A DNA stretch of 64,000 nt from NCBI GenBank assembly GCA_903915225.1, contig CAIWSB010000089.1, positions 5,835 to 69,834 on the forward strand, in the 5' to 3' direction. Every line of letters starts with the position of its first letter. Position 1 is the first letter of the stretch. Source of the DNA: an uncultured Candidatus Woesearchaeota archaeon (GTDB lineage Archaea; Nanobdellota; Nanobdellia; Woesearchaeales; B29-G15). Both the position numbers and the translations under genes were made by a program. Shown piece by piece: positions 15,355 through 58,645 of the stretch. The notes beneath the pieces were generated by a model that was not told the origin of the DNA, did not search any database, and worked only from the letters and a program-made list of their open reading frames with translations.

Positions 15355-16824
15355 CTAGAAAATAAACTTAAGGATCAGACCCAGGATTACACCTGCTGCT
15401 GCTCCAATCCCCAAACCCCATAACATACTCGCTGCAGGGAGTTCAAGTGCGAGCCAGACGATTAAACCCACTATGACTCCAACAATTGCACCAATTAATG
15501 CAAGCCTTAGGATATTTTTATTCTCTGAAGAGCTATCTTTCGCACATGCATCGCCCTTTCCATCCTTGTCTGTGTCCTTTTGGTCAGCGTTTGCCACATC
15601 AGGGCAGTTGTCGCACACATCCCCCAATTTATCTCCATCGCTATCTGTCTGGACAATATTTACTTCGGAAACGCAGTTGTCGCATGCGTCTCCCACACTA
15701 TCACCATCTGTATCCAATTGGTCTACGTTCTGGATATCAGGGCAGTTGTCCTTGTCATTTAAAATCCCGTCATGATCTCTGTCGTTGTTTAACGAAGGAC
15801 CTGAAGTCACTGTTGTTGTGGTTGTCTGTAAGGGGTTGCTTTGGATATATCTCATACATGAGTTTGAGTCGCACTGCCCAATGGTTGCGAAATCAACCCA
15901 GACAAATCCCTCGCCTGTACACTTCACATTTTCTCTCTGGTTGCCTCCCCAAACATCATCGGGTGAGTGTGAGCAGCAACAGCCCTTGGTGCATTCATTC
16001 CAGTTGGCAAAATTAATTGAGTTCATCATTGCGCATGCCACTGAGCCCTCCTGGCAGGTATCGGCTTGGTAATAGAAGAACCAGTTCTTGAGGCAGTCTG
16101 CCTGATCCTTGGGGCCATTTTCGTTTCCGGTGGCATAGGCTTTTGGGTCATCTGCCGGGCAGCACTCTTTTGCAACCTGGTTATATGTGCAGGGGCTTGT
16201 CTTAGGGTTTACGCAGCATCCGCTCTTCTCCTGTTCTCCCCCTTGGCAGATGCTGTTTGTGCAGCCACCAGGGCACCAGTTCGTTGTTTTCATGCAAGAG
16301 CCACTTGAACAGAAATATTCAGCAGCCCTGTTGCTCCCATCGCAATCGTCCACAAAGCCATGCCCTTGGGCGTCAATACAAATGCTCTGGACATCAAAGT
16401 TTTTTCCATCTGGATGGGCTGCGTCAACATCAAAGTCCTTGCATGTTCCTAAGGGAACGTTACCATAGCTCTTGCGGCAAACCCCTTTATCTATATCGCA
16501 GCCGAACTCGCATTTCTCTTCAGTAGACATGCAGAAAGGGGGATGACACTGGTAGCAGAACCATTCCTTAAGTGTTGACAAACTAAGGCATTCATCTGGT
16601 ACATTAGTTACTGTGCCATCGCTGCATGTTCCCCACTCGTAAATCTTCCTCCCATTATCAGTCTCAGAGCATCCAGAATATGGTGTCGCAATGGTGGTAG
16701 TTGTGCCACAACCAACCCCGCCGACACTCCCTCCACACTTGGGGGATGTAGAATCTTCAGCAGAAACAATTATAGGAACAAATAGAAATAATATAAGTAA
16801 AACCAGCAGCACCCTTTTAAGCAT
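15355..16824 (-). CDS. Secreted cysteine-rich protein with thrombospondin type-3 (TSP3) calcium-binding repeats and a C-terminal TM anchor.
   Basis: Signal peptide, then about 60 Cys residues in repeated modules. TSP3-like repeats ([26 protein letters not shown]...[34 protein letters not shown]) precede C-terminal hydrophobic helices. Confidence 0.7.
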   Translation of the reverse strand: MLKRVLLVLLILFLFVPIIVSAEDSTSPKCGGSVGGVGCGTTTTIATPYSGCSETDNGRKIYEWGTCSDGTVTNVPDECLSLSTLKEWFCYQCHPPFCMSTEEKCEFGCDIDKGVCRKSYGNVPLGTCKDFDVDAAHPDGKNFDVQSICIDAQGHGFVDDCDGSNRAAEYFCSSGSCMKTTNWCPGGCTNSICQGGEQEKSGCCVNPKTSPCTYNQVAKECCPADDPKAYATGNENGPKDQADCLKNWFFYYQADTCQEGSVACAMMNSINFANWNECTKGCCCSHSPDDVWGGNQRENVKCTGEGFVWVDFATIGQCDSNSCMRYIQSNPLQTTTTTVTSGPSLNNDRDHDGILNDKDNCPDIQNVDQLDTDGDSVGDACDNCVSEVNIVQTDSDGDKLGDVCDNCPDVANADQKDTDKDGKGDACAKDSSSENKNILRLALIGAIVGVIVGLIVWLALELPAASMLWGLGIGAAAGVILGLILKFIF

Positions 16825-16869: not shown

Positions 16870-18684
16870 TTAAATCAGGCCGAACAGTGAGCCAACTATT
16901 CCTCCAACAACACCGCAGGCAAACACAAGGGGCAAAAGTATTGGGGCGAGGGCAGGCACGGTGAGTGCAATAATCCCTCCAATAACCCCACCAACTATAG
17001 CGCCGAAAAGTGCATACTGTTGGGTCTTGTTTGAACTACCATCGCAGGCATCCCCCTTACCATCACTGTTAGTGTCCTTTTGGCTGGGATTGGATTTGTC
17101 AATGCAGTTGTCACAAGCATCCCCCACTTTGTCATCATCCCCATCCGCCTGATCCTGGTTGGGGGTTTCAATGCAGTCGTCGCAGGCATCACCCACCGAA
17201 TCTTTATCAGTATCACTCTGGTCTGCATTTTTTACAAAAGGGCAATTGTCGCAAACATCGCCAATCTGGTCCAAATCAGAATCCTTCTGATCAGGATTGC
17301 TAACATCAATACAATTGTCCATGGCATCGCTAATGCCATCCTTATCTATGTCTTCAGAAGAGGCTGGAGGTTTTATCGAAGATTGGTCATCGTTAACGAT
17401 TTCCTCAGCTGTTCCCCCCATTATTTTTGCGCAGGCCTCATTGCTGCATTCATTAATCTCTCCAAAAGATTTCCACTGCTGCTGGCTTCCGCCGCATTTT
17501 ATCTTGGACAGTTGAGAGCCCTTCACAAATCCTGATGGGGAGCGCTCGCAGCAGCAGCCCTGTTCACAGTATCCCGCATTGTCAAAATTCGCTGTGGTCA
17601 TCTGGGCGCAGGCATCATCACTGCTATAAAAGAAGAACCAATCGCGGGAGAGGCATTGCTGCCTATCTTTTGGACCCACTTCTATGGGGGAAACATATTG
17701 GGTTGTATCCTCTGGACAGCAAAGGCTGGCTGATTCGTAATACGTGCAGGCATTCTTTTTGGGGTTGAGGCAGCAGCCCCCCCCTTGAGTCATTTCTGGC
17801 TGCTCAACGAGGCACGCACCGGCAGCGCAACCCCAGGTGCATTTCTGCATTGCATCCATTGCACAGCTGCCGCCCAGGCAATAGAATTCCTGGATATGGC
17901 ACCTGTCACCTGAGCAGGAATCAACATATTCAAAGTTAGTTCCATCATCAGTGAGGACGCATTGGTCAGTCCAAGATTTGAGCCTGTCATTGCAGGTCCC
18001 CTGGACGAAAAAGTCCTTTGAATTGTCTGTCTCTGAACAATCCTGCCGAGGCTGCTCTGTAGCCATTGGAATCTCAATTGTTGTAAAAGTCCTGACCTTG
18101 CAAGCCCCATTCTCGCAGCCCAGCGGGCACCAATTGTCCTTTGGGAGGCATTGTGATTCTGGTTGACTATTGCACTCTCTGCCGTGGCAGCCTCCGCTAG
18201 GAGTTGCCGGACCGCAGTAGTATTCCTTTAAGCGATTGCCATCACAAGTGTCTGGAAACTCCTGTTCACTTCCTGTCCCAATGCCATCTGTGCAGAGCCC
18301 ATTAACCTCTGGAAAAATCCCTTCGTCAGTGTCATCGCAGCCAGGCGCGGGGTAAGTAATTTTTGTTCCGCTGGGCAGACAGGCGCCATTAAGACAGCCA
18401 TTGTCGCACCAGGCGTCGTTTGGCATGCAAAGCCCCTCTCGGCAGTAATACTCGGTTAGCCTCACAGGGTACCCGGCGGCTTCGTAGTCACACTTGTCAA
18501 TAACTGTTCGGGTGGCATCCTTGCACACGCCTTGCATATAGACATTGAATCCGCCATCCTCCTCACAGCATGTGCCACTGTTATCCAAATAACAGACCGA
18601 GTCCCCACAATCGCAGGCTGCTGCAATTCCTGCGCATAGTATCATAGCGAGCAACAGTGCCAAACAGAACCTCATTAATTTCAC
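16870..18684 (-). CDS. Secreted cysteine-rich protein with TSP3 repeats (a paralogue of the 15355-16824 gene) and a C-terminal TM anchor.
   Basis: Same architecture as the 15355-16824 gene. It has three CxDTDxG...C..GC..GAC modules, a shared GCC(V/L)NPK..CTY...CCP.D...GPKD..CL module, five TSP3-like repeats (DxDxDxxGDxCDNCP), and a C-terminal TM. Confidence 0.7.
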
Positions 18685-18916: not shown

Positions 18917-19693
18917 ATGGTGAATATTGACATTACAGGTAACTGTAACCAGAGATGCGAGTTTTGCTACCAAACCCTGGATGGCTCAAGCCTGCCAACC
19001 GACGTGATTTTGGACGTGGTTCAAGAACAGAAGAGCGATAGCAGCGTCCAAGTGGGTGGAGGAGAGCCAATGCTTGATCCTCGGATATTGTGGCTAATAG
19101 AAAAATTTGTTGACATGGGGAAAAGGGTGCACATTGCCACCAATGGGACAGTTATTCCAGAGGGGCTTTTAGACCTTGAAGAGACTGTCAAGAAAAACGT
19201 CGAGATTCAGGTGAGCCTCCATGCATCCAGCCCTGAGCTTTACAAGAGCATTACTGGAACTGATTTTTTCGACAGGGTTTTAGAAAATATTGGGGCTTTG
19301 AAAGCCCATTTCACAACTCTCATCACAAGTGTGGTTTATCAGAGAAATTATGGTGATATGCAGAATATCATTGACTTGGCCGAGCAGATGGGCTTGCCGC
19401 TGCGCGTGAACCTTGTCTTCCCAGTGGGGCTCGGCAAGGATGTGATTCGGCTGACCTCAAAGCAGGTTGAAGGGCTGCGCGGGCTGCTGCTGGCTGAGAG
19501 GCTGGGAAAAAAGGGGATGATTGATTCGCCGCTGGTGCATGCCGAAAGCAACTGCCATGCGCTGGAAGTGGCATATGGAATCCCACGAACAGGGCAGTGC
19601 CCGTTCGACCTGGGGAAGCTCTATGTTGCCCCGAGCGGTGAGAGATTTGGTTGTGAATTTTATAGAAAGAAGGAAAGGAGGAATGAAAAATGA
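18917..19693 (+). CDS. Radical SAM enzyme with a C-terminal twitch/SPASM-like Cys motif.
   Basis: CNQRCEFC (CxxxCxxC) near the N-terminus, a GGGEP SAM-binding motif, and C-terminal GQCPFDLGKLYVAPSGERFGCEF. Confidence 0.75.
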   Translation: MVNIDITGNCNQRCEFCYQTLDGSSLPTDVILDVVQEQKSDSSVQVGGGEPMLDPRILWLIEKFVDMGKRVHIATNGTVIPEGLLDLEETVKKNVEIQVSLHASSPELYKSITGTDFFDRVLENIGALKAHFTTLITSVVYQRNYGDMQNIIDLAEQMGLPLRVNLVFPVGLGKDVIRLTSKQVEGLRGLLLAERLGKKGMIDSPLVHAESNCHALEVAYGIPRTGQCPFDLGKLYVAPSGERFGCEFYRKKERRNEK

Positions 19694-21261
19694 CTACTCA
19701 ACCAACATGCCCCACGGGCCAAATGGCCATTAGGGCAAATGAAGAAAAGACAGTTAATGAAAAGACATATTATATTCCAAAAGCTTTGAAGGAAGATCTT
19801 GAGACAGTTATTGCCACATTGTCTGATATTGATAAATTTGGCAAGGAAATGGGTCACAGAAATATCCTTCTGACAGGCCCGCCTGGGACAGGTAAAACAC
19901 TGGGCGCAAGATTTATCGCATACAAGACCGGCTTTGTTTACTATGACGGCAAGAAGCTCTCTTCTGCCTTTGACATAATCAAGGTTTTTGATGAGCTCAG
20001 AAAGCAGGTTAAGGAAGGCAAAAAGGCAATCCTGATGCTTGATGAAATCGATAGGTTCTCTAGCAGGGAAGAGAGCAACGACCCGGGCCAGGTGCAGATG
20101 CTCAACCAGCTTCTGGCAGAGCTGGATGGAGTGGAATCCAACAACGGCATATTTGTCATAGGAATGACCAACATGCCAAACAGGATTGACCCTGCGCTGC
20201 GAAGGCCGGGACGATTCGGCAAGGAGATTGAGTTCATGCCCCCTGATGAGCAGGGTAGGCTTGAGATTCTCAAGATCCATGCAAATGGCAAGGGTGGCCA
20301 TCAGTTCAAGTTTGACCCAAAAGATGTTGAATATTTGGCTTCTGTCACATATGGATATACAGGCGGTGACCTGCGCGGCCTGCTGGATGAGGCCATGGCA
20401 CGCGCCAACCTCAGAAACTCCCTAAATGTAAAGAGGGAAGATTTGGACTTTGCCAAAGTAAGGATTAAGCCTTCTGCAATAAGGGATATGCCATTCAAGG
20501 AACCAAAGATTACAGTTGATGATATTGGTGGGTATGCCCTACATAAGGACTTGCTTGGGCAAATAGTAAGCAGCAAGCAGGGCGGGAACATTTTGTTCTA
20601 CGGACCTCCTGGAGTTGGCAAGACCACATTTGCAGAAGCGCTGGCCAAGCAGTATGGGCTTAACCTCATTGTTGTCAGCGGTTCTGCACCATTGGACAAG
20701 TATGTTGGTGAAACCGGGAAGAAACTCGAGAAATACTTCGACAGGGCCAGGCAGCTCGCGCCGTGCGTGCTGCTTTTTGACGGCTTTGACGCACTGATTG
20801 AGCGCCGAGGATTTGTTTCATGGGCCTCAGATTGGACAGGGCTGATTGAATCTAAGCTAAGTTCACCCATGGATGGGGTTTATGTCATTGCCACAACAGA
20901 AAAGCCAGAGCTCATCGGGCCAACACTGCTGGAGAAGTTCAGGCACAGGGTTTACTTCCCAATGCCACAGGCGGAAGAGGTCGCTGAGATTTGGGCAAGA
21001 TACCTTCCCGATGGCATTAGCCCAGAGACTATCAAGGATGCCAACCCACGGCTCAATGGTCTTGATATTGCCAGGGTCATGGGCATGATTAAGGATTTCG
21101 GCATCGAACCTACTACAGAAATCCTGACACAACTTGTGACAGGCATAGAGCACGCAACAGACCTAGAACAGCCTTCGCTCACTTTCCGGGATGCCAATGG
21201 GGATTCCATACAAGATTACCGAAAGATTAAAGCCTTGCTAGGAGGGCAAAATGGCGCTTGA
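19690..21261 (+). CDS. Tandem AAA+ ATPase (two AAA domains, CDC48-like, no N-domain).
   Basis: Walker A GPPGTGKT and Walker B LMLDEIDRF, then a second GPPGVGKT and LLFDGFDAL. SRH-like GMTNMPNRIDPALRRPGRF. It overlaps the upstream gene by 4 nt (ATGA). Confidence 0.8.
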   Translation: MTTQPTCPTGQMAIRANEEKTVNEKTYYIPKALKEDLETVIATLSDIDKFGKEMGHRNILLTGPPGTGKTLGARFIAYKTGFVYYDGKKLSSAFDIIKVFDELRKQVKEGKKAILMLDEIDRFSSREESNDPGQVQMLNQLLAELDGVESNNGIFVIGMTNMPNRIDPALRRPGRFGKEIEFMPPDEQGRLEILKIHANGKGGHQFKFDPKDVEYLASVTYGYTGGDLRGLLDEAMARANLRNSLNVKREDLDFAKVRIKPSAIRDMPFKEPKITVDDIGGYALHKDLLGQIVSSKQGGNILFYGPPGVGKTTFAEALAKQYGLNLIVVSGSAPLDKYVGETGKKLEKYFDRARQLAPCVLLFDGFDALIERRGFVSWASDWTGLIESKLSSPMDGVYVIATTEKPELIGPTLLEKFRHRVYFPMPQAEEVAEIWARYLPDGISPETIKDANPRLNGLDIARVMGMIKDFGIEPTTEILTQLVTGIEHATDLEQPSLTFRDANGDSIQDYRKIKALLGGQNGA

Positions 21262-22257: not shown

Positions 22258-23870
22258 ATGCCGCTGCAAACCATTGCTGGAGAGGACAAGCAGCATGCTG
22301 AGCTGCTACGCCTACTCCAAGCTATGGGGGAAATAAGGCGCGGGGAAGAAACTGGAAACCCCAATCTGGAGAAAAGGGATAAATACCTTGGCCTGAGCCA
22401 GGAATTTGGCGAGCTTCTGGACAGCATGCCTGACATTAAGGTATCTGTTAAGTATCTTGTTCAGCGTGCTGAAAATGGAGAGGGAGCAGAGTATGACCCA
22501 TATTTTATTGAAGCCTGGGAACAGATTTACCCGGATTTTATTAATGTGCTCGAGAATCTGACTATCCAGCTAATGGGCGATGACCTTGCGGGTTTCAAGA
22601 GCACACACCACATTTGGAACGCGATAAAATATCTATCAACAGAAGGCAAGCCCTTGAAAGACAGCCTAAAAGTTTATGACACAATTCTCCCTGTTCAGCC
22701 ATCGCTTGATCTCAAGGGATTCACAGTCACGGGAATTGAACCAAGTGATGGTATCCTCACATTAGGGCGTGAACCGGATAAATTAGAAGATATAGTAAAG
22801 AGGGCTTCCCAAATCGGATTCAAACGCTTGAGGACCGAAATTGACCTAAACAATCCTACGGATTCTCAATCTGCTGTGCTGACGAATTACAGGAGAAAAG
22901 ATATCACACCGAATAAGGGTGTGGCTGCAAAGAAAAATAAGAAAGGCCTTTTCGAAAGGATATACAATCCTGTCACGGCGATCCCTTTAAATTTTATAAT
23001 TGGGGGGTTACCAGCTAAAATTCAGGTATGGATTAGTGAAAAATATAAGAAGAAAGGGCTAGAGATTAACTCAGATGTGTGTAGTGGATACAATTGGATG
23101 GGGGAAACTGTGATGAGTGCCATTGCAGCTGTGGTTTGCCCCTTAACATTAGGGTTATGGACGGTTGGCCCAACTGCAGGATATTTTGGGTATTCAATAA
23201 TAAGATTTATTTGGTCGGCTGTTAAAGATACAAGACAATTGGAAATGCTCTCTGGAAAATCCCTCTTCTGCCAGTTGAATTGGCAATACGTAATAAAGAA
23301 AATCCAAAAAAAGGAGCTAAAAAACCAGAGAACTGGGCCCTGATGGAGATTGAATTGGGGTCTGTTAGAAACGTAAATAGGGGCTTTGCCCAAATATATG
23401 AGCCAGTTTCAGAAAACCTCCACCCTTCGATGAGGAGATTGGCTGAGGTTCAATTGGATCAAAAGCAAGAGGATAACCTTGTGTATTCTCCAAAGAACCA
23501 CAACTACCAGGGAAGCCTATTCCGGGATGCCTTGCAGGTTCAAGGGAGTGGGGCTGTAGTGTTAAGGGAATTGGATAAATGCGACCTCTACAGGGATCTC
23601 AGTGCAATCACATTCTACAAAGTCATGACCGAACACAAATACAGTAAGACATCTGCATTGGTGTGCTACCAAAACAGGCGTTATGCAATCACCTTGGTAA
23701 CACCAAATGAATTTGAGCCAAAGGAGCTCCCAAAGCTATTGGCAGACACATCTAAGCCAATTGAAGAAAGAGTTGAGGGGCTTGCGAAATCATCAAGAGC
23801 ATTATACGCCCACGTGACCCAATTTGAAAAATGCCAGAAGACAGCAGACCTGGTCTGGAGGCAGGGCTAA
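22258..23870 (+). pseudogene. Frameshifted copy P1 of the tandem paralogue family, as two ORFs 22258-23343 and 23280-23870.
   Basis: The N-terminal ORF aligns with the N-terminal 360 aa of P2 and the C-terminal ORF with the C-terminal 190 aa of P2. They sit in different frames with a -1 shift near 23275-23285, which is not a homopolymer tract. Confidence 0.55.
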
Positions 23871-23871
23871 G

Positions 23872-25467
23872 ATGGCAATCCAGAAAATAACCGGAGAGGA
23901 CAAGCAGCATGCCCAGCTTTTGCAATTACTGGATGCAATAGAAAACATCAGAATAGCTGAGCAAAACGGAGAGGGTTCACCAAAGCAGAGGGATACGTAC
24001 CTTGGCATGAGCCAGGAACTTGGAGAGCTGCTGACAAGTATGCCCCAAATTAAAAGCCAGCTCAATAATCTTAAGGCTCTTTTTGAGAAAGGCGAAGGAA
24101 AGAGCTACGACCCATATTTTGGAGATGTATTCCGAAAGACAAGCCCTGAAATTACCACCGGGCTTGAGAGCCTCACAATCCAACTCTTGGGAGATGACCT
24201 GGCTGGATTTGAAGACACCCACCATATGTGGAATGCAGTTAAATATCTCACATCAACTGGCAAACCAAAGGCAGAGGTGCTGAAGATATTTGATCAGATT
24301 GTGCCAATGCAGCCCTCACGCAGTTACAAGGGGCTGGATGTGGATGGCAAAGAGCCAACTGAGGAAATTCTATTTGTCGGGCGACCGCCTAAAGAGTTTT
24401 TGAGTTTAGCAGCAAGGGTTGGGAATGCTGGGTTTAAGACCCTTCGGGCAGAAATCGATATGAATCATCTTACTGAAGAAGAAAGAGCTATGTTCTCTAA
24501 GTGTAAAAACTTGAGGGTTCCTGCGCAAGGGGAAGATAAAAATAAATCTCGCGTAATCAGGTTTTTGGACCGGGTTTACAACCCTGCCACCAGAATTCCA
24601 ATACATTTTGTTGTAGGGGGGCTGCCAAAAAAGGTTCAGAAATGGGCAGTAGATCAGCTCAATCTTGCTGCAAAAAACAATTATATTTATGAGGAGGATA
24701 CAACATTAGCCAATATAATTGGGGAAGGTGTATTAAGTGCAGGTGCTGCTGTCGCATGTGGGCTGACTTTAGGGCCTTTAACATGCATCCCTGGAGCGGT
24801 ATATTTTGCTTACACTGGCTTTAAGGGACTTGTTCAATTTATACAAGAATCGGATGCTTCTGACCGCCTTATCTGCGGAAACCTGTTCTGGAAGCTACCA
24901 CTCCTGCCATTTGAATTGAAAATTCGCAGGGAGGAAAAGGAAGGAAAAAGTAAAGCCAAGGAAGATTGGGCGCTCATTGATTTTAAGCTAGAGGGTTATT
25001 ATCGAAAGGTAAGCAAACAGGACAAGCACAACTTCCATCCTGTGTTGGACAGCCTCGGAGCAATAACAGTTGATGCCACAGTTGAGGAAAACCTAGTCCA
25101 TACACCAAGCAACCACAACTCGCAGGGTTACAATTTCAGGGAAGCTCTCTTAGCAAAAACCCCACAGTTAGAGCAATGCGTGCTCAACAGGGAATATGAC
25201 GCAGTGACCTCATTTAATGTCTTGCCTGTGGACAATTACTCAAAAATTTCTGCCTTGGTGTGCTTCAAAGGTCAGCGCTATGCCATAACAATGGTTACGC
25301 CCGGGGAATTCAGGCCTCAAGAGTTGTCGGCACTGCTTGCTGATTCAACAAAGCCGATAGGAAAGAGGCTAGAAGGAATTGCTAAGAATTCAGGCGCAAT
25401 ATACGCTCACATTACTCAGTTCACCAGCTGCCAGAAGACAGCTGATTTAGTTTGGAGGAAGGATTAA
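23872..25467 (+). CDS. Paralogue P2 of the novel family (uncharacterised, ~530 aa, central hydrophobic segment).
   Basis: Shared motifs: LTIQLLGDDLAGFEDTHHMWNAVKYL, VGGLPKKVQ, a hydrophobic stretch, NHNSQGYNFREAL, SALVCFKGQRYAITMVTPGEF, YAHITQF..QKTADLVWR. I take the start at MAIQKITGEDKQHA (23872), 48 nt downstream of the ORF-track start at 23824. Confidence 0.65.
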   Translation: MAIQKITGEDKQHAQLLQLLDAIENIRIAEQNGEGSPKQRDTYLGMSQELGELLTSMPQIKSQLNNLKALFEKGEGKSYDPYFGDVFRKTSPEITTGLESLTIQLLGDDLAGFEDTHHMWNAVKYLTSTGKPKAEVLKIFDQIVPMQPSRSYKGLDVDGKEPTEEILFVGRPPKEFLSLAARVGNAGFKTLRAEIDMNHLTEEERAMFSKCKNLRVPAQGEDKNKSRVIRFLDRVYNPATRIPIHFVVGGLPKKVQKWAVDQLNLAAKNNYIYEEDTTLANIIGEGVLSAGAAVACGLTLGPLTCIPGAVYFAYTGFKGLVQFIQESDASDRLICGNLFWKLPLLPFELKIRREEKEGKSKAKEDWALIDFKLEGYYRKVSKQDKHNFHPVLDSLGAITVDATVEENLVHTPSNHNSQGYNFREALLAKTPQLEQCVLNREYDAVTSFNVLPVDNYSKISALVCFKGQRYAITMVTPGEFRPQELSALLADSTKPIGKRLEGIAKNSGAIYAHITQFTSCQKTADLVWRKD

Positions 25468-25468
25468 C

Positions 25469-26665
25469 ATGGATAACTTAGGAAATTATGTTACTATTGA
25501 ACTCACTGACAAGGACGTGCAGGTGCACATTGACAGCATTGTCAAATCTATGGAGGCCATACGCCAGGATGCCCTCACAGAGCGGGGCTTCAGCCAGGAT
25601 CAGGCTGATGATTACGTGCACCTGGCAACCAGGCTTGCATCAGCCATGGAAGGCTTGGCAAACGAACAGTTGGGCAAGAAAGTCAGGAGCCAGATTACAA
25701 TTGCCAACAGCAACCCCAAGCTGGTACTCTTTGACAGCCTCCAATCAGATTACTGGGGCAAAAAGAACAAGGAATTTTTACGAGGGCTTGCCCAGATTAC
25801 TGTCCAGTTCATGGGTGATGATTTCCGCGGCTTGGGCGACACGCACCATTTCTGGAACGCAATAAAATACCTGGGATGCGTTGGGCTCCCATCGGAGCAG
25901 CGCTCTGTTGTGCTTTCAACAATTGTTCCTTTCCATACCCCTGATGGCCTAAAGCCAAAAATCAAGAAGGGCAAGGGCGACGGGCTAACTGTGGTTGTGC
26001 CAAAGGCAGGCGCACTACCTGATGCAGTTGATGCTGCCAAGAATTACGGCTTTACTGCTGTGAGATTTAAAGCAAATCATCGAGAGCTGGCAGAGATAAA
26101 GAAGCAATATCCATCTATTAATTTAGTTGGAGTTGAGAACCAGACCGCAAACGACGCAGATGTAATTGCCGAGGTTAGGGTTGCCAGCATTGGGGAAAAT
26201 GTCAAGCACAATTACCATGCCAAAATTTGTGAAATTGCAGAGCTCCAGCTGCCTGATGCAGCTGAACAGAACCTGACTTGGAGCATGAGGAACCATAACA
26301 CCCAAGGAAAGGATTTTGAGAAGGCAATAAGAGCACTTTTGGAGAAGGGCATTGAGTACCGGTCCCATCTAAACAGGGAGTGCAATGCATTATCATTATT
26401 CAACAGGACCGAGTTTGGGCCTTGGCAGAAGGTCTCTGTTGTGGTGTGCTTCCCAGGGCAAAGGTATGCTTTGACTTATGTATCTCCAAGAGAGACTTCA
26501 CTGCCAGATTTCCAGCCAATAAGCACTATCCTTGCTGCAAGTGAAAAACCGCTTGAAAGGAGAATCGATGAAGAGCTTGCAACTGCATTAAACGCAGAAT
26601 ATGCCCACATAGGCCACTATGTAAAAGGTGCCCTGGCAGGGGACTGGATTTACAGGAGGGACTAG
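25469..26665 (+). CDS. Paralogue P3 (short form, lacks the central hydrophobic segment).
   Basis: QFMGDDFRGLGDTHHFWNAIKYL, NHNTQGKDFEKAI, VVCFPGQRYALTYVSP, YAHIGHY. Confidence 0.65.
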   Translation: MDNLGNYVTIELTDKDVQVHIDSIVKSMEAIRQDALTERGFSQDQADDYVHLATRLASAMEGLANEQLGKKVRSQITIANSNPKLVLFDSLQSDYWGKKNKEFLRGLAQITVQFMGDDFRGLGDTHHFWNAIKYLGCVGLPSEQRSVVLSTIVPFHTPDGLKPKIKKGKGDGLTVVVPKAGALPDAVDAAKNYGFTAVRFKANHRELAEIKKQYPSINLVGVENQTANDADVIAEVRVASIGENVKHNYHAKICEIAELQLPDAAEQNLTWSMRNHNTQGKDFEKAIRALLEKGIEYRSHLNRECNALSLFNRTEFGPWQKVSVVVCFPGQRYALTYVSPRETSLPDFQPISTILAASEKPLERRIDEELATALNAEYAHIGHYVKGALAGDWIYRRD

Positions 26666-26685
26666 GAGAAGCGCTTTGAGGCGAT

Positions 26686-28332
26686 TTGATGCAAAAGATA
26701 GACCTGATACAAGCCAACGGGGAATTGCTCTCCTCAAGGGAAGAGCTTGGTGATATTATCACCAGGATGGAGAACTTAAGGACTAATTTTAAGGATAAGG
26801 ATGAGCAAAAAAACCAGTACCTTGTGCTGGCCGGGCAGGCTGGCGAACTTATCCAGAAGATTTCTGGTCTGGAGGCAAGATTAGACCGGCTAATCAAAAA
26901 AGCTGAGAGAGATTTTACTACCAGGGGCTATGACTCATCCAGAGATAAGCTTTGGTATGCTGCTGAACCTGGTTTCATGAAAGATCTCGAGATGGCGACA
27001 GTCCAGTTGCTGGGGGATTCCTACCGCGGAACAATAGATAGGCACCACATCTGGAGTGCCGTGAAAGTCCTGGCCGGCCAAAACCTCCAAAGGCGTGAAA
27101 TGATTGAGCTTTATGACACAATCCTGCCAAGAAATTCGCAATATTTCATTGTAACCGGAAACCTCAGGAAATTGTTTGGGCTGCCTAGGAGATCCACAAT
27201 AAAGGGAGGCGTGCTGGAAATAGACTGGGGGGTCAAGGATATTGATGAGATTGTAAAAAAGGCTGGGAAAATGGGTTTAGAAAAGGCGGGGTTTTGGTTT
27301 GACGACGTTAAACAGTTGTATAACCCTCAAATTCCAGGCATCATAGTAAAAGTCCAATCCAAAGGCTTGCCCGTGTCAGATATAAGGCTGCTAAAGGGCT
27401 TGTTCAAACAGAAATGGCTAACATACCCCTTTCTTGGTGCCCTCCCTAAGAAAATCCAATCTACAATTGCAAATTACTTAAACAATAATGATATGAGAAA
27501 ATTGTACTCACCAAGTGCTGCTTCGCAGTGGAGCCTCGGTATTGAGGCCGTTGGGCTAACTGCTGCCGGAATTACATTAGCTGTCACTGTAAGCCCTTGG
27601 CTTGCATTCCTAATTGGAGGAGGCTTAGTGGGAGGGTTGTTTATACGTGGCCCATTGCTTGGTCTAGGAGGTTGCAACGATTATCTGCAAAGTAGAAACA
27701 AGAACGACTCCGATGACTGGGGCCACTGCAGCTACTGCTTCCGCAAGCAGGCTGACAAACCATTAGGGAGCGGCTTCCTTAAGCCATTTTTCTGGCCAGT
27801 CGAAAAATTAGTCGAATCCAATAGGTCACCAAATGCAATGGGAAACCCCCGCTGGGCTGTTGCTGAGATTCCCCAGAAAGCTCAGGCAACCCAGTACCTC
27901 AACAATTACCACAGCACACTTTGCAAGATGGCAGGAACTCTTTTTGAACCAAGCCTTGAGCAGGATCTTGTGCTAAGGCCAGAGAACCACCACAATGCGG
28001 GGAAGGCGTTTGAGGCTGCGCTGAGAGCTTTGCCTGACTTCCCAAAGACTGCTTTAAGACTTTCTGAAAGGAGCAGAGAATACAACGGGATGGCGGTTTA
28101 CGAAGAAGAAATTGGAACAGAGCAAAGCAAGCTCTCTGCCTTTGTCTGCTTCGCCAACGAAAGGTATGTTGTCACAGTTGTTAAGCGAGGGAATACTGGT
28201 GTTGATAGTATTATTCAATCACTCTCTGCTGGAGATACAAGAGGGCTAACAAATGCAGTGAATGCAGATTATTTGCACCTCACACATTTCAAGGAAGGAA
28301 AGAAGGTTGAGGATTTTGTGTATCTGAGGTAA
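26686..28332 (+). CDS. Paralogue P4.
   Basis: VQLLGDSYRGTIDRHHIWSAVKVL, LGALPKKIQ, a long hydrophobic segment, ENHHNAGKAFEAAL, SAFVCFANERYVVTVV, YLHLTHF. Confidence 0.65.
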   Translation: MMQKIDLIQANGELLSSREELGDIITRMENLRTNFKDKDEQKNQYLVLAGQAGELIQKISGLEARLDRLIKKAERDFTTRGYDSSRDKLWYAAEPGFMKDLEMATVQLLGDSYRGTIDRHHIWSAVKVLAGQNLQRREMIELYDTILPRNSQYFIVTGNLRKLFGLPRRSTIKGGVLEIDWGVKDIDEIVKKAGKMGLEKAGFWFDDVKQLYNPQIPGIIVKVQSKGLPVSDIRLLKGLFKQKWLTYPFLGALPKKIQSTIANYLNNNDMRKLYSPSAASQWSLGIEAVGLTAAGITLAVTVSPWLAFLIGGGLVGGLFIRGPLLGLGGCNDYLQSRNKNDSDDWGHCSYCFRKQADKPLGSGFLKPFFWPVEKLVESNRSPNAMGNPRWAVAEIPQKAQATQYLNNYHSTLCKMAGTLFEPSLEQDLVLRPENHHNAGKAFEAALRALPDFPKTALRLSERSREYNGMAVYEEEIGTEQSKLSAFVCFANERYVVTVVKRGNTGVDSIIQSLSAGDTRGLTNAVNADYLHLTHFKEGKKVEDFVYLR

Positions 28333-28336
28333 CAAG

Positions 28337-30025
28337 ATGAAGCGACAAGTTGTCACAAAGGCACCGCCGAAAACAGGCGCAAGCCATGATTTGATCAAGC
28401 TACTTGACTCAATGCAAGCGCTAAGGGAACAGCAGCGCATCTCAAAGCTGGACTCAATTAAACTCGATGATTACCTTGTGGCAGCTGGTGAGCTGGGTGC
28501 TTACCTTGAGCAGTATGAAGGGAGCGACTTTAAAAAAATTGCCACAGCTATCGCAGGAAATGCCAACCTCAGGTTTTATGATGCAGATAGGGACTTGGCA
28601 TGGAGGGTAATTGAGCCCGAGATGTTAGAGCTTCTAGATGGAATAATTGTGAAAGCCATGGGGGACGACTTCCGCGGGCTGGAAGACAAGCACCACTTCA
28701 TGAATGCTGCAAAATGCGTAATGTGCAAAGACTGGGAGCTGGAAAAAAGGATTGAAGTCTATGACACTGTACTCCCTGTTGTGGATTCAAGTCAAGCACT
28801 TAACATTGCAAATAATATTGGCCAAATTAGCGGAGACACTCTAAAGATTAATTTAGACGCCAAGGATTTGGATACAAGGATAAAGCAGGCAAAAGATGCG
28901 GGGTTCAGCAAAGTTGTAATCAGATTTGATTATACTAAGGATAAGGAGAAGATAATAAAATTAAAGAGAATTTATAACGGAACAATTACTGATGTAGCGC
29001 AACCAAGCGGACCAAATAAGAATACAATTTTTAAAAACCGCCTGTTAGGGGTGCCTGCATTCCTGCTTGTAGGCGGTCTGCCAGCCTCGTTGCAGAAAAG
29101 GATTCAAAACGCGTTTACTATGAGAGGTTATAGCTCATTTAATAGTGAGTCGACAACAGCCGCTAACGCACTATTAGAAGGAGCAGCTTCTTTCTCCCTT
29201 GGTTTTTGGGCATTGCACCTTGGCCCAATTGTTTACGTGCCACTATTCGCATACTTTGGATTAGCAGCAATACCCCGAATTGCAAGTTTGATGAAAAATT
29301 CAGACATAGCTGTAAAAGACAAGAATGTTTTTGGCAAGGCAAAAGCCAGACCAATAGGGTCGCTAATTGCCAAGATTCCGCTTTATCCTGCGGAACAAAT
29401 ACTCAATCTAGCGTGCGGGAAGGTCAATTATTACCCAAAAGAATACACAATTAACTTTAACCAAGCTACACCATTGGGTGCCTTTGATAATCGTTTCATG
29501 AGATTAGCCCGAGCTCAAGCAACAACTGCCGCTCAGAAAGCGCTCCCTGAAAAGCCTCAGTTAAAAATCCCTCCGGCACCCAATTATCATCCACTTATGG
29601 ATAAGGCAGCATTAATTGCAGTTAACGCTGAGGCTGAGGAGAGCCTGCGATATAGGGTTACGGCACACCACAGCCAGGGTAACCTGTTCCGAGATGCAAT
29701 GAACCCTAAAGGATTGGAAGGGTTTGGAAGATACCTGGATAAGCCCAGAAACTCGCTCACATTTTTCTCGACTTCAGAGCAACAACCTTACAGAAAGTTC
29801 TCAGCATTGGTTTGTTTCTCAGGGGAACGCTATTCAATCACTCTTATCGGTAAGAATCAAATTGCAGCGCAGGCAATCTCCGAGAAGCTATCTGATGGCA
29901 AAAAGCCTCTTGATGCCAGGCTAAAAGAGATTGCGGAATTGGCCGAAGCTGATTACGCACACCTCACTTATTACAAACAGGGACAGAAAGCAGAGGATCT
30001 GATCTGCAGGGGGGTTGCTGCATGA
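28337..30025 (+). CDS. Paralogue P5.
   Basis: KAMGDDFRGLEDKHHFMNAAKC, VGGLPASLQKRIQ, a hydrophobic segment, AHHSQGNLFRDAM, SALVCFSGERYSITLIG, YAHLTYY. Confidence 0.65.
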   Translation: MKRQVVTKAPPKTGASHDLIKLLDSMQALREQQRISKLDSIKLDDYLVAAGELGAYLEQYEGSDFKKIATAIAGNANLRFYDADRDLAWRVIEPEMLELLDGIIVKAMGDDFRGLEDKHHFMNAAKCVMCKDWELEKRIEVYDTVLPVVDSSQALNIANNIGQISGDTLKINLDAKDLDTRIKQAKDAGFSKVVIRFDYTKDKEKIIKLKRIYNGTITDVAQPSGPNKNTIFKNRLLGVPAFLLVGGLPASLQKRIQNAFTMRGYSSFNSESTTAANALLEGAASFSLGFWALHLGPIVYVPLFAYFGLAAIPRIASLMKNSDIAVKDKNVFGKAKARPIGSLIAKIPLYPAEQILNLACGKVNYYPKEYTINFNQATPLGAFDNRFMRLARAQATTAAQKALPEKPQLKIPPAPNYHPLMDKAALIAVNAEAEESLRYRVTAHHSQGNLFRDAMNPKGLEGFGRYLDKPRNSLTFFSTSEQQPYRKFSALVCFSGERYSITLIGKNQIAAQAISEKLSDGKKPLDARLKEIAELAEADYAHLTYYKQGQKAEDLICRGVAA

Positions 30026-31557
30026 GAACTGTTGTCATCCAAGCCCCGGAGAGAGACAAGTCTCTAGTGAAGCTGCTAGACTCCATGGAAGACATCCGGC
30101 GACAAGAACTCGCAAAAGGAGAATCTGAAAGCACCCAGCAGAACGAGTATCTCATACTGGCTGACAGACTGCGCTCGGAACTAAAACCAAGATTGGGCGT
30201 TGCAGAGGACTTCGATAAGATTGTTGCCATTTTGGCTGATAAACCCCATCTCATGCATTATGATGTATCCAGCGAAAGCATGTGGCGGCAGGTAGAGCCG
30301 GAGATATCTGAGCTTTTAGATAGAGTCTTAATTGAAGCAATGGGTGATGATTTCAGAGGAGTTGCTGACAAGCAACATGTGCTCAATGCAGCAAAGTGCG
30401 AAATGTGCGCCAATTGGCCACTGAAAACCAGGCTTGAGGTTTACGATTATGTCAGACCGGTGCTTGACTCAAGCAGAACCCTAAACTCAATCACAAATGT
30501 GGGGGAGATAATTGGCAACGGAACTGAAATTCTAATTAAGGGAATTCCAAGGGACCTTGAAGAAAAAATCAGGCAAGCTGGGGAGATGGGCTTCAAATAT
30601 CTCATATTGAGGGCAGATTATTATGAAAACAGGAAAGATATAAAAAAAATGAGGGGGAGAAAGGGATGGGAGATAAAGGGCATGGGTGCCCAGAGAAGCC
30701 CCGATAGATCTTATACCCCGAGAATCATGCAACGCCTCTATCCATTGATAGGAGCACTTCCTGCCTCGTTGCAAAGAAGGGTGTATATTAATCTAGAGAA
30801 AAAGGGGATAACCTATGATGAGATGACTCCGAGTATGCGTAATTCTGCCGCATCAATAGTTACTGACATGATAACTGCAGGAGGTTTGATGCTGCTTACC
30901 CAAAACCCTTTGGTTTATGTTCCTGTTTTTGGATTAATTGCAGTGGATTACCTTAGGCTATTGTACTCATTTGGAACAAGCATGTTTAGGAACAACATCG
31001 GCAGAAACCTCAATAAGCCAATGGGCTCCCCTGTTGCAAAAATAGTCCTATTTCCAATTGAGCTTATCCTCGGCGGGGTTTACGGCAAGGTTGCGTACAA
31101 TCCCTTAGAGATTAAGATACACTTAGACCAGGATGGCAAAGAGGAGCAGACTGCACCAAACCTCCATCCAATAATGGAAAAGCTGGCATCTAGTGAAGAT
31201 GGGGCCAGCAACTTTGAGCTGGCGGAAAAATTGAAGGCGCAAGCCCCTGGAACACCAATTCTCACTAGCCAAAGCAATAAAAATGATACTTTCACCTTGT
31301 ATAATATAGTCTCCGATTGTTCCCCGTTCAATAAGCTCTCAGCACTGGTCTGCCTCAGCGGCGAACGTTATGCAATAACAATTATTGGGACAAATGAAAT
31401 CAATTTGGAGCAAGTTTCTGAGACGCTTTCTGATGCAAAACTCCCGATTGAGCAAAGGCTATGTGAGATTGCAGAGAGGAGTGGAGTGCGCTTTGCACAT
31501 TTAACACACTACAGCCAGGGTAAGAAAACAGAGGATATGGTGGCTTATTCCAATTAG
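30022..31557 (+). CDS. Paralogue P6.
   Basis: EAMGDDFRGVADKQHVLNAAKC, IGALPASLQRRV, a hydrophobic segment, SALVCLSGERYAITIIG, FAHLTHY. It overlaps P5 by 4 nt. Confidence 0.65.
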   Translation: MRTVVIQAPERDKSLVKLLDSMEDIRRQELAKGESESTQQNEYLILADRLRSELKPRLGVAEDFDKIVAILADKPHLMHYDVSSESMWRQVEPEISELLDRVLIEAMGDDFRGVADKQHVLNAAKCEMCANWPLKTRLEVYDYVRPVLDSSRTLNSITNVGEIIGNGTEILIKGIPRDLEEKIRQAGEMGFKYLILRADYYENRKDIKKMRGRKGWEIKGMGAQRSPDRSYTPRIMQRLYPLIGALPASLQRRVYINLEKKGITYDEMTPSMRNSAASIVTDMITAGGLMLLTQNPLVYVPVFGLIAVDYLRLLYSFGTSMFRNNIGRNLNKPMGSPVAKIVLFPIELILGGVYGKVAYNPLEIKIHLDQDGKEEQTAPNLHPIMEKLASSEDGASNFELAEKLKAQAPGTPILTSQSNKNDTFTLYNIVSDCSPFNKLSALVCLSGERYAITIIGTNEINLEQVSETLSDAKLPIEQRLCEIAERSGVRFAHLTHYSQGKKTEDMVAYSN

Positions 31558-32195
31558 CCAGACCAGCAAGAGCCTAATGTCATCCAGTTGATGAAGCTAT
31601 TGTACTCAAGATAGCCCACCTGCCTCCTCGTGCAGCCCGGCTGGATAAAAACACTCACCGGAATTCCTGTTACTTGATACTTTTGCACATCAGCATTGCC
31701 ACTGCTGGCATAAATTCTCTCAACCACAATGTTGGGGTACTCTGCCTCAACCTGGCTTATGACTGGCTTCTCCTTTTCACACCAACCGCAGGTATCGCTG
31801 TAAAAGAACTTTAGGGTTCCACTAATTGAACTGCCTTGACGGGTGGTTGTCGTTGTGAGCCTGCTAGTAGAAGAGGTATGCAGTATAGTTGTGAAAGTCA
31901 TTCCAGAAAACTCTATTGGAACAAATACCGGGTTGTTAATGCACCTGCCGAAAAGGCAGCCGTTGGGGCAATTGCTGCTTGAAGCTACACAGCCATTGCT
32001 GCCGCAGGAATACTCAACCAAGATAGTTAAGTCAGCTGAGCAATAATCGGCCTTCTCGCCGATGCCGTCTGTGCATTTGCCGAATTTGGAATAATCCTTA
32101 CCGTTGTCTGTATCACTGCACTCACCGTAGACTAACCCGGCAAGAAGAATAAATAGGATTAAAATAGAAACGCCTTTGAAATTAATTGTAACCAT
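31554..32195 (-). CDS. Secreted fusion of a Cys-rich CxDTDxG module and a thioredoxin-like (CGWC) domain.
   Basis: Signal peptide. The module CSDTDNGKDYSKFGKCTDGIG...CPNGCLFGRC matches the modules in the 15355-16824 and 16870-18684 proteins. The C-terminal region carries a CGWC (CxxC) thioredoxin-fold motif (FFYSDTCGWCEKEKP...TGIPVSVF). Confidence 0.6.
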   Translation of the reverse strand: MVTINFKGVSILILFILLAGLVYGECSDTDNGKDYSKFGKCTDGIGEKADYCSADLTILVEYSCGSNGCVASSSNCPNGCLFGRCINNPVFVPIEFSGMTFTTILHTSSTSRLTTTTTRQGSSISGTLKFFYSDTCGWCEKEKPVISQVEAEYPNIVVERIYASSGNADVQKYQVTGIPVSVFIQPGCTRRQVGYLEYNSFINWMTLGSCWSG

Positions 32196-32231
32196 CTTTT
32201 TTAATTGAATCGGTAAGGGGATATTTAAAAC

Positions 32232-33638
32232 TTACCCTGAAACCTTGCGCCACTTGGTTCCTTCTGGTGAGTCAAAAAGCTCAATTCCCTTTTCAAGGAG
32301 CTGCTTCCTCAGCATATCTGCTGTCGCCCAATCCTTATTAGCTCGGGCAATGTCCCGCTGCTTTATCAGTTCCTCAACATTTTCTGCGAGTTCTGGGCTT
32401 TGAGATTGGAAAGAGATTATCCCCAAAACCTGATTAATCTGTTCCAAAAACTTGAGAACAACCTTGGCATCAACTGAGCTGAACCCCTGCTTGTAGAGCT
32501 CTTTCACGAAATCAAAGAGTATGCCCAAGGCCTTAGAAATGTTGAGGTTGTCATCCATTGCCGCATCAAACCCTTTCTTGGTTTTCTCAATCAGCTCACC
32601 CACATTGGTATTGGGTTGGCCGGTCTTGGCCTGCTGGAGCTCAAACACAAGGTTGTTGATGCGCTCCATGGCAGCCTCCCCTGCCTTGAGGCTTTCCATT
32701 GTGAAATTGAGAGGCATCTTGAAGTTGGTTGAGATTAGAGCATAGCGCACAGCCATTGGGCTAACTCCCTTGGCTAAGAGGTCGCGGAGAGTATAGAAAT
32801 TACCAAGGCTTTTTGACATCTTCTGGCCTTCTACCATGAGATACTCGTTATGGAGCCAGTATTTTACAAATGGCTTTCCAGTTGCAGATTCAGATTGGGC
32901 TATCTCATTTGTGTGATGAGGGAATATCAAATCTGCACCGCCTGTGTGGATATCAAAGCTTTCTCCCAGATACTTCATTGACATTGCAGAGCACTCTATA
33001 TGCCAGCCTGGCCTTCCTTTGCCAAGTTCTGTCTCCCAAAACACAGGCCCATCGGTTGGTTTCCAGGCCTTCCAGAGCACGAAATCACGGGCGTTTTCCT
33101 TATCGTAGCTATCGCTGTCCAGCCTCCCTTGGGCGTTTTCAGTCAGTGCCTCAAAATCCAGGTGAGCCAGCTTGCCATATTTGGGGAAGCTGGCAATCTT
33201 GAAGTAAATCGAGCCCTCATGCTCGTATGTATGGTCCTTATCCCTTATTTTCTTGATGAGTTCAACAATCTCCTTGATGTGCTCAGTGGCCCTGGGATAA
33301 TGGCTTGCAGGCTCTATGTTTAGCATCTGAAGGTCTTCAAAAAATGCCTCAATGTACTTTTCAGTGTACTGCTTCAGAGGAAGCCCTTGCTTTTGGGAGC
33401 CGAGAATTGTCTTGTCATCCACATCCGTAAGATTCATGACCTTGATTACCTTAAACCCCTTATACCTCAGATATCTTGTGATGAGATCAGAAATCATGAA
33501 TGCACGAAGGTTGCCAATATGTGCGTAATCGTACACAGTTGGACCACAAGAGTACATTTTAACAACTCCTGGCTCAAGTGGCTTGAAAGCCTCCTTTCTT
33601 CTGGTTAGAGTATTGAATAGGCGCAGTGCCATGGCCAT
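32232..33638 (-). CDS. cysS: Cysteinyl-tRNA synthetase.
   Basis: MYSCGPTVYDYAHIGN (HIGN motif), KMSKSLGN, and a ~465 aa class I fold. Confidence 0.85.
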   Translation of the reverse strand: MAMALRLFNTLTRRKEAFKPLEPGVVKMYSCGPTVYDYAHIGNLRAFMISDLITRYLRYKGFKVIKVMNLTDVDDKTILGSQKQGLPLKQYTEKYIEAFFEDLQMLNIEPASHYPRATEHIKEIVELIKKIRDKDHTYEHEGSIYFKIASFPKYGKLAHLDFEALTENAQGRLDSDSYDKENARDFVLWKAWKPTDGPVFWETELGKGRPGWHIECSAMSMKYLGESFDIHTGGADLIFPHHTNEIAQSESATGKPFVKYWLHNEYLMVEGQKMSKSLGNFYTLRDLLAKGVSPMAVRYALISTNFKMPLNFTMESLKAGEAAMERINNLVFELQQAKTGQPNTNVGELIEKTKKGFDAAMDDNLNISKALGILFDFVKELYKQGFSSVDAKVVLKFLEQINQVLGIISFQSQSPELAENVEELIKQRDIARANKDWATADMLRKQLLEKGIELFDSPEGTKWRKVSG

Positions 33639-58643: not shown

Positions 58644-58645
58644 CT

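Follow-up and report, generated by a model that had tools for sequence, protein, structure and literature searches.

A putative exported thioredoxin-fold oxidoreductase fused to a cysteine-rich module, and its candidate surface protein partners, in a DPANN-type archaeon

How do archaea, notably the small-genome DPANN, build disulfides into the proteins that they export? This area is largely uncharted, and new bacterial pathways are still emerging (MauE, in a 2026 preprint). The question is raised in concrete form by a 64,000-nucleotide stretch of Candidatus Woesearchaeota DNA (contig CAIWSB010000089.1; hereinafter, the window), in which a minus-strand gene at 31554-32195 encodes a 213-residue, apparently exported protein that combines a single cysteine-rich module with a thioredoxin (Trx) domain. 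Taken together with two surface proteins of 40 and 57 Cys encoded in the same window, a connection that gene fusions in relatives reinforce, this small protein is a concrete candidate for one half of an enzyme-substrate pair. The interpretation that we favor, at a probability of about 0.58, is that it is an exported Trx-fold thiol-disulfide oxidoreductase, similar in role to DsbA, PDI and MdbA, that serves lineage-specific Cys-rich surface proteins.

The gene is an ATG-to-TAA open reading frame (ORF) of 213 codons (stop codon at 31554-31556), as seen in the ORF list and its translation; the plus-strand frame at the same coordinates is riddled with stops, and the start is unambiguous because only 12 in-frame codons separate the upstream stop from the ATG. 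In the protein collection, the protein (P0001) is accompanied by a variant with a single amino acid difference on another contig (P0002), the gene being intact on both; apart from this variant, it is a singleton at 90% identity, as are the window proteins. All the features of the protein listed here lie on the minus strand. Residues 1-24 (32124-32195) form a signal-peptide-like N-terminus, MVTINFKGVSILILFILLAGLVYG, the sole hydrophobic segment of the protein (Kyte-Doolittle maximum over 12 residues, 3.41), which has one Lys in the n-region, a 15-residue hydrophobic core, Val at position -3 and Gly at -1, and is followed by EC; by the -3/-1 rule, applied without a dedicated predictor, cleavage would occur after VYG, at the G24/E25 boundary. 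Residues 25-88 (31932-32123), delineated with phmmer and a hidden Markov model (HMM) of the module, comprise one Cys-rich module of the 8-Cys variant (C26, 41, 52, 64, 69, 76, 80 and 85), which reads CSDTDNG...GKC...DYC...EYSC...GC...NCPNGCLFGRC. Residues 89-126 (31818-31931), as read from the sequence, consist of a short hydrophobic stretch and a Thr/Ser-rich linker, TSSTSRLTTTTTRQGSSISG, with the Thr/Ser-rich part at roughly residues 100-126. Finally, residues 127-213 (31557-31817) form a minimal Trx-fold domain, as indicated by Pfam, profile alignment to PDB sequences and AlphaFold2 (AF2). All 12 Cys are found at conserved positions: 8 in the module, 2 in the catalytic motif and 2 extra ones (C188 and C210). 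The earlier note on this DNA had described the same four parts, with CGWC as the active site of the Trx segment, and all of them are present; the strand, which it did not give, is minus.

The leader, the Thr-rich linker, the 12 Cys in conserved pairs and the leaders of the module family jointly suggest that the protein is extracytoplasmic. In particular, a hydrophobic leader begins 96 of the 106 complete module proteins, compared with 0 of 104 internal control windows. The earlier note had held that a missing Trx-fold prediction or a cytoplasmic prediction would refute its proposal; a Trx fold is predicted (see below), and the leader, judged without a dedicated signal-peptide predictor, points out of the cytoplasm, as does the rest of this evidence. 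Among the products of the unannotated ORFs in the window, the other leader-bearing proteins and membrane proteins contain 0 to 5 Cys, as against 12 in the module-Trx protein and 40 and 57 in the large proteins; such poverty in Cys among the other exported proteins fits a disulfide system that is dedicated, not general.

An exhaustive phmmer search with the 213-residue protein over 1.84 billion representative sequences gave 456 matches at E<=1e-3, and its features are far beyond chance. Word-indexed homologue searches retrieved only the protein itself when run with the complete sequence, three generic thioredoxins when run with an alignment of six related Trx domains, and no matches, missing even the window's own proteins, when run with an alignment of the second Cys-rich domain described below; this type of search appears to be unsuited to Cys-rich, divergent sequences. 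The dissection that follows covered the best 150 of the 456 phmmer matches, a list biased by the query, among which 40 proteins match the Trx part and 115 carry the module.

The C-terminal part of the protein has the thioredoxin fold. It matches PF00085 with 28.3 bits over residues 131-204 (gathering score 23.5); in NCBIfam, only Trx-type models are matched, all well under their equivalog cut-offs. The single sequence already finds thioredoxins among PDB sequences with phmmer at E ~1e-4, placing the CxxC on CGPC and VTGIP on the cis-Pro loop. The alignment of the six related Trx domains (hereinafter A1), which are only 27-34% identical, strengthens this signal: the best single-domain thioredoxin reaches 4e-15 and TXNDC5, with its three domains summed, 1.6e-20, and the CxxC as well as the G-[IVL]-P loop fall on their counterparts in Trx and PDI structures. 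The AF2 model made with A1 (predicted local distance difference test score, pLDDT, 87.5; predicted template modeling score, pTM, 0.80) shows a beta-alpha-beta-alpha-beta-beta-alpha topology, with pLDDT below 50 at the start of the modeled segment (residues 113-120, inside the linker); a model of the complete protein from the single sequence reached a pLDDT of 34.7. The core is superposable on solved thioredoxins, the hallmark of the Trx-fold superfamily, in a minimal version of about 85 residues and three helices, in which the first strand and helix (beta1/alpha1) of classical Trx are absent, such that PDB alignments begin at about Trx residue 23. Thus, the fold check proposed in the earlier note came out in its favor for the fold and the CxxC, and the alignments place a Pro where thioredoxins have their cis-Pro loop.

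The active-site motif C136-G-W-C139 (31779-31790) aligns with the CGPC and CGHC of Trx and PDI structures, and lies at the N-terminus of helix 1, which begins at residue 137 in the AF2 model. P179 (31659-31661), in the loop VTGIPVSVF, occupies the cis-Pro-type position and aligns with the thioredoxin G-I-P-T loop. A1 shows no variation at either Cys of the CxxC, at this Pro, at G194, at Y198 or at the extra Cys pair, and this invariance at 27-34% identity points to selection on the active site. The same observation makes it very improbable that the domain is a non-catalytic, structural Trx fold or that the gene is a recent chimera without function. Such an explanation could draw on the lack of close homologues other than the single-residue variant and on the domain shuffling that is evident in the family, but it would have to account both for the invariant residues and for the intact gene on two contigs.

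Judging by sequence, the Trx domain belongs to a small, previously undescribed subfamily that we denote XC, defined by a Trx domain of minimal size in which one additional Cys follows the turn ahead of the last strand and another follows the last helix (motif C[TV]xxxxG[YF]xxY...C), and by fusion to Cys-rich exported regions. The subfamily consists of 6 clusters, namely P0001 (with P0002), P0007, P0044, P0061, P0066 and P0098. Of the five clusters other than that of the window protein, four score at or above the PF00085 gathering score (31.4-59.5 bits), and P0061 is just under it, at 22.1. The counterparts of C188 (31632-31634) and C210 (31566-31568), which delimit the segment 31566-31634, occur without exception in the 6 XC sequences, whereas about 100 other related Trx domains lack them; the G-[YF]-x-x-Y motif is common to the members as well. 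In the AF2 model, the last strand starts at C188 and the last helix ends just before C210, an arrangement that makes a structural disulfide between the two plausible. In a leave-one-out test, the XC HMM recognizes the window protein with 88.3 bits, compared with 61.1 for the best non-member, a 27-bit gap. Within the best 150 matches, those to the Trx part are mostly eukaryote-like multi-Trx proteins (with CGHC) or other tandem-Trx proteins.

In all 5 other XC clusters, the Trx domain is fused to Cys-rich exported regions. P0007 comprises a lipobox-like leader, a module, a Thr-rich linker, Trx with CTYC, another module, the second Cys-rich domain described below and one more module. P0066 consists of a leader, Trx with CRYC, this same second domain, an Ig-like (He_PIG) domain and a C-terminal Gly-rich transmembrane (TM) segment. 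P0098 has a leader, modules and about 90 Cys in other repeats ahead of a Trx with CPHC, and P0044 is a fragment of the same type, whereas P0061 combines a leader, DUF5667 and Cys-repeats with a Trx with CPPC. In the P0098/P0061 lineage, exported proteins that bear the module or a Trx have DUF5667 (PF18915) at their N-terminus more than once (P0061; 12825-14141 of the contig L011), which suggests that this domain is one more shuffled component of the surface-protein repertoire.

The earlier note had linked the small protein to the two large Cys-rich proteins through the module that they share. These proteins are encoded, on the minus strand, at 15355-16824 (489 residues, 40 Cys) and 16870-18684 (604 residues, 57 Cys), and, within the window, the CxDTDxG pattern and the module HMM both locate the module in three ORFs only, namely these two and that of the module-Trx protein. 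The module in the latter, with the pattern C-x-D-[TS]-D-x-G ... G-x-C ... D-Y-C ... E-Y-x-C ... C-P-N-G-C-x-x-G-x-C, fits the family consensus C-x-D-[ST]-D-G-G...G-T...D-x-C...E-Y-Y-C...C-P-x-G-C-x-x-G-A-C, and the HMM built from 243 instances recognizes it at E 1.9e-19; matches to the module only reach 1.8e-28 in the phmmer search. Six Cys are present in 206 of the 243 instances and at least eight in 36, and the module-Trx protein and the large window proteins carry the richer variant. The module has no relative in Pfam or among PDB sequences. A reading of CSDTDNG as a calcium-binding DxDxDG loop was dropped, the spacing being unfit.

The module is a generic extracellular building block of DPANN-type exported proteins. 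The 115 module proteins among the best 150 matches contain 4 copies at the median and 14 at most, and nearly all lack Trx. A scan of genome contigs with the 213-residue protein found only module matches, in 8 loci of metagenome-assembled genomes (MAGs) labeled Woesearchaeota, Nanoarchaeota or Aenigmarchaeota, plus one Saccharibacteria bin, and none of the 20-kb neighborhoods around these loci contained an XC-Trx. Moreover, when compared with the module of the small protein, the modules of the two large proteins rank 223-247 of 247 (pairwise E 6e-7 to 2e-3), and on this ground the idea that the former is a recent copy from one of the latter was rejected. Because the module is generic and the copy in the small protein is distant, sharing it would not by itself mark the large proteins as substrates, and this part of the earlier argument is weak.

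The link to the large proteins runs instead through a second domain, for which we coin the name CCLNP. It spans about 130 residues with 31 invariant positions, 14 of them Cys, follows the pattern GCCxNP...C...CCP...GPxD..CL..WFF.Y...C..GCCC...C...C....C, and includes the invariant vicinal motifs CC, CCP and CCC; no relative was found in Pfam or PDB. In the window, CCLNP is present in exactly the two large proteins, at about 15814-16227 in the 489-residue protein and at about 17395-17781 in the 604-residue one. The former consists of a signal peptide, 2 modules, CCLNP, a Thr-rich linker resembling those of P0007 and of the module-Trx protein, thrombospondin (TSP) type-3 repeats and a C-terminal Gly-rich TM segment; the latter, of a signal peptide, 3-4 modules, CCLNP, TSP type-3 repeats and a C-terminal TM segment. 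The Trx-fused CCLNP of P0066 matches the 489-residue protein with BLASTP at E 3e-21, and Trx-fused P0007 matches the 604-residue protein at E 5e-16. Within the best 150 matches, P0007 and P0066, which both bear Trx, are the sole proteins with CCLNP, and the 111 module-only proteins all lack it; when JGI metagenomes were scanned with two short CCLNP peptide patterns, the P0007 contig alone was confirmed. Because CCLNP is otherwise encountered only in or near XC-Trx proteins (P0007, P0066 and the contig of the latter), the case for the large proteins as substrates is built on this domain, on gene fusion and on neighborhood. The two proteins are therefore candidate substrates or partners of the small one: for the partnership proposed in the earlier note, comparative support now exists in the fusions, in the co-occurrence with CCLNP and in the related contig, and the substrate role as such is what we infer from these.

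Some further observations pertain to the large proteins. Their TSP type-3 repeats weakly match the model of the myxobacterial cohesion protein MtsC, and both end with a Gly/Ala/Ile-rich C-terminal double hydrophobic segment. The 604-residue ORF, with a GTG start, is called as 591 residues in ENA contigs, which leaves its true start and signal peptide uncertain. The 489-residue gene is also found on contigs from the ENA analyses ERZ1426812 and ERZ1426843.

The 6.5-kb contig that carries P0066 (L010) contains four genes in the order: a 555-residue protein (2 modules, CCLNP and TM), P0066, cysS, and a 464-residue protein (leader, 2 modules, CCLNP, TSP type-3 repeats and TM). The last of these is an orthologue of the large window proteins (E 1e-44 to the 604-residue protein). 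The cysteinyl-tRNA synthetase (L010 3312-4736), which adjoins P0066, is 70% identical to that of the window, where cysS likewise adjoins the module-Trx gene and the large proteins are encoded about 13 kb away. Thus, XC-Trx, cysS and CCLNP proteins are linked in two related genomes that differ in gene order and in the distribution of domains. The adjacency of cysS may be inherited synteny; it is also tempting to imagine that the supply of Cys-tRNA is coupled to proteins that contain 40-57 Cys. The closest relative of the module in the small protein is the first module of the 464-residue protein (42% identity over 71 residues), and one might speculate that the 213-residue gene arose by the joining of a Trx domain to the leader and first module of a gene like that one. 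In the P0098 lineage (L011 and L012; 37% GC; a TrmB neighbor), a further module protein with DUF5667 is encoded two genes away.

In which direction would such an enzyme drive thiol chemistry? Thioredoxin itself has CGPC in its active site, whereas DsbA has CPHC, PDI has CGHC and DsbC has CGYC; an aromatic residue or His in the second position of the CxxC dipeptide is typical of oxidizing or isomerizing members. Across the XC clusters, the dipeptides are GW, TY, PH, PH, RY and PP, and because the second residue is W, Y, H, H, Y or P, they resemble those of DsbA, PDI and DsbC rather than that of Trx. The Trx relatives that come next after XC (P0005, P0013, P0023, P0046, P0057, P0102 and P0127) begin with a MauE/DoxX membrane domain, after which come 2-6 Trx domains in tandem; a CGC motif is present in all seven, and TSP3, EGF-like or PKD domains follow in four of them (P0023, P0046, P0057 and P0102). 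MauE has been reported to replace DsbB in Escherichia coli through a CXC active site, and 8.2% of the InterPro MauE entries are fused to Trx-superfamily domains (bioRxiv 10.64898/2026.03.05.709764). Because the nearest relatives outside XC are fused to MauE, a DsbB-like generator of disulfides, the XC clade is placed in oxidative folding. As for the MauE-Trx relatives themselves, the additional domains in some of them are of the Teneurin-type EGF, TSP3, ephrin-receptor-like or PKD kind, and as many as 135 Cys are reached in 2040 residues; a generator of disulfides, a carrier and putative substrates are thereby united in a single polypeptide.

The active-site dipeptides and the MauE fusions also bear on a different role, namely that of an extracytoplasmic reductase or protector resembling CcmG, ResA, TlpA or DsbG, which would be fed by a CcdA/DsbD-type transporter and would keep Cys reduced or repair thiols. 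The best PDB scores of the Trx domain are indeed to classical thioredoxins, the residue before the cis-Pro-type proline is Ile, as in Trx, and TraF/TrbB-type models are weakly matched. We nevertheless consider this role improbable: there is no CcdA/DsbD in the window, the domain shows neither Redoxin/TlpA-type insertions nor family matches (Redoxin and AhpC-TSA are absent from its Pfam matches at E<0.1), the Cys of the partner proteins are conserved in even sets, which implies disulfides over free thiols, and the relatives are fused to the oxidase MauE.

CCLNP might, alternatively, be a redox partner of XC-Trx and not a client, that is, a cofactor- or metal-dependent domain that generates disulfides or transfers electrons, completing a self-contained extracellular relay. 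Every CCLNP found is fused to an XC-Trx or is near one (within 6.5 kb in L010, about 13 kb in the window), its vicinal CC, CCP and CCC motifs are invariant, no classical partner is encoded in the window, and fusions of VKOR or MauE to Trx provide a precedent for such an arrangement. This notion is doubtful, given that the domain has no Pfam or PDB relative and no recognizable cofactor motif, that it forms part of adhesin-like proteins, each locus having several paralogous copies, as is typical of structural domains, and that the sample is very small. Similarly low odds attach to the broader conjecture that XC-Trx and CCLNP constitute a previously unrecognized DPANN-type disulfide system that would replace DsbB, VKOR or MauE, in cis or in trans, and would be genetically coupled to cysteinyl-tRNA synthetase.

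Under the oxidoreductase reading that we favor, the closest known counterparts include DsbA, MdbA and BdbD, with which the protein shares probable export, the Trx fold, CxxC, a Pro in the cis-Pro-type position and a presumed donation of disulfides to exported proteins, the XC dipeptides (CPHC, CGWC, CxYC) being of the oxidizing type; a DsbA lipoprotein of Haloferax volcanii has been mentioned within the DsbA-type thiol oxidases (PMC6098224). Unlike DsbA, however, it has no alpha-helical insertion domain and no PF01323 match at E<0.1, and unlike DsbA, MdbA and BdbD, it carries the C188/C210 pair and the fusion to a Cys-rich module, with no DsbB or VKOR seen in the 64-kb window. The a-domains of PDI, ERp and TXNDC5 have in common with it a CGxC with an aromatic residue or His in second position, TXNDC5 giving the best summed PDB profile score, and the PDI family also provides a parallel in the oxidizing compartment, in clients with multiple disulfides and in the combination of a catalytic domain with non-catalytic, substrate-binding ones. 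In contrast to PDI, the protein has a single Trx with CGWC instead of the a-b-b'-a' arrangement, lacks the N-terminal strand and helix, comes from an archaeon and scores 19.6 bits against the TIGR01126 cut-off of 107.2. The MauE(DoxX)-Trx fusions and the MauE-MauD pathway are akin to it as the source of the nearest Trx relatives after XC, some of which continue into Cys-rich extracellular domains; it differs from them in having only one hydrophobic segment, with no four-TM MauE/DoxX domain, and the XC extra Cys pair. Compared with TrxA, finally, it is apparently exported, has TCGWC in place of WCGPC, lacks beta1/alpha1, carries F130 at the position of Asp26 in E. coli and reaches 24.9 bits against a TIGR01068 cut-off of 96.8. 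The protein would act like a catalyst of the DsbA or PDI type and yet belongs to no named family among those that were tested.

A mechanism can be sketched along these lines. The protein would be exported, either cleaved or anchored by its signal segment, and would work outside the cytoplasmic membrane of a DPANN-type archaeon, where C136-G-W-C139 most likely donates or reshuffles disulfides. Its substrates would be extremely Cys-rich surface proteins, in this genome the 489- and 604-residue proteins with their 6/8-Cys modules, CCLNP and TSP3 repeats. The N-terminal module would form a stable, disulfide-stapled extracellular domain that probably keeps the enzyme among surface proteins of the same kind, the Thr-rich linker, possibly glycosylated, would give the catalytic domain reach, and the C188-C210 staple would stabilize that domain outside the cell. 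Of this picture, the ORF, the domain composition, the Trx fold, the conserved cysteines and the fusions and neighborhoods of relatives are observed, whereas export with cleavage, the C188-C210 bond, which way the reaction runs, which proteins it acts on and where its electrons come from or go are inferences.

Several points weigh against this picture. No DsbB, VKOR, MauE/DoxX or CcdA/DsbD-type partner is encoded within the 64-kb window, and an HMM of MauE built from 6 relatives found nothing there, with a best E of 0.097. The Ile before P179 is that of a reducing thioredoxin. If the environment is anoxic, as it may be, an acceptor is required for net oxidation. The Trx of P0066 is located at the distal tip of a membrane-anchored stalk, a position better suited to external targets than to chains that emerge from the translocon. 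With 6 XC clusters and 3 CCLNP lineages, the sample is small, and because two of these lineages are related (their cysteinyl-tRNA synthetases being 70% identical), part of the neighborhood signal is shared ancestry; the list of 150 matches, furthermore, is biased by the query.

The position of the Trx in P0066 leads to another explanation, in which the protein is a surface redox effector or adhesin whose Trx domain reduces or reshuffles disulfides in the envelope of a host or neighbor during episymbiosis, with the module serving to bind or anchor. Many DPANN-type organisms are episymbionts, and it is in DPANN-type MAGs (Woesearchaeota, Nanoarchaeota, Aenigmarchaeota) that the module family is typically encountered. 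In addition to being the most distal domain on the TM-anchored stalk of P0066, the Trx is the last domain of the long secreted proteins P0098, P0061 and P0044, and the large partner proteins contain adhesin-like TSP3 repeats. On balance, we regard this explanation as unlikely, because a tight, selective tie to one Cys-rich domain of the same organism is what would be expected of a foldase and its substrate, and CxxC dipeptides of the oxidizing type disfavor a reductase.

If the protein is indeed an oxidoreductase dedicated to these surface proteins, the fusion of foldases to their substrates would offer organisms with minimal genomes an economical arrangement. Exported oxidoreductases with the Trx fold are to be expected, and the present findings refine the picture without overturning it. 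Literature searches on Cys-rich surface proteins of DPANN or Woesearchaeota brought up no relevant work. They also bring to light three unannotated families that annotation pipelines have missed, namely the XC-type Trx, the 6/8-Cys module and CCLNP.

The genomic context of the gene is archaeal, as indicated by the split RpoA'/A'' and RpoB'/B'' subunits, FttA/aCPSF1, a proteasome subunit, NusA-KH, S12 and ABCE1 encoded in the window, which has a GC content of 46%. Directly upstream of the module-Trx gene, on the same minus strand, is cysS (32232-33638; Pfam tRNA-synt_1e, 1e-110), and the 36-nt spacer between the two contains a TATA-box-like element, TTTAAATA (32222-32229, minus strand), read from the sequence about 30 nt upstream of the ATG, which might serve as the promoter element of the gene. 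On the other side, the stop codon of the gene overlaps by 4 bases (31554-31557) with that of a convergent plus-strand gene for a 511-residue protein (30022-31557), and because of this overlap, there is no space for terminators between the two.

The convergent gene closes a tandem paralogous family of plus-strand genes (22258-31557), without a Pfam match or an assigned function, in which most members have a single central hydrophobic segment near residue 300; the paralogues that start at 28337 and 30022 are 35% identical (E 5e-98). The overlapping ORFs 22258-23343 and 23280-23870, in different frames, look like a frameshifted or split copy because they match the N- and C-terminal parts, respectively, of the paralogue at 23824-25467 (43% and 46% identity). 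Upstream of this family are a radical-SAM gene (18917-19693) and a gene for a double-AAA, Cdc48-like ATPase (19690-21261). Farther along the window, ARAGORN alone calls a tRNA-Asp(GTC) at 52418-52492 (minus strand), about 60 nt from a second tRNA call at 52294-52358 (minus strand), which was made by Rfam RF00005 alone and covers only model positions 7-64. Several small membrane-protein ORFs (57536-59209) precede a plus-strand gene (60468-62786) for a 772-residue protein with a T2SSE-type secretion/pilus ATPase domain, and the locus as a whole (57536-62786) could be pilus- or archaellum-like.

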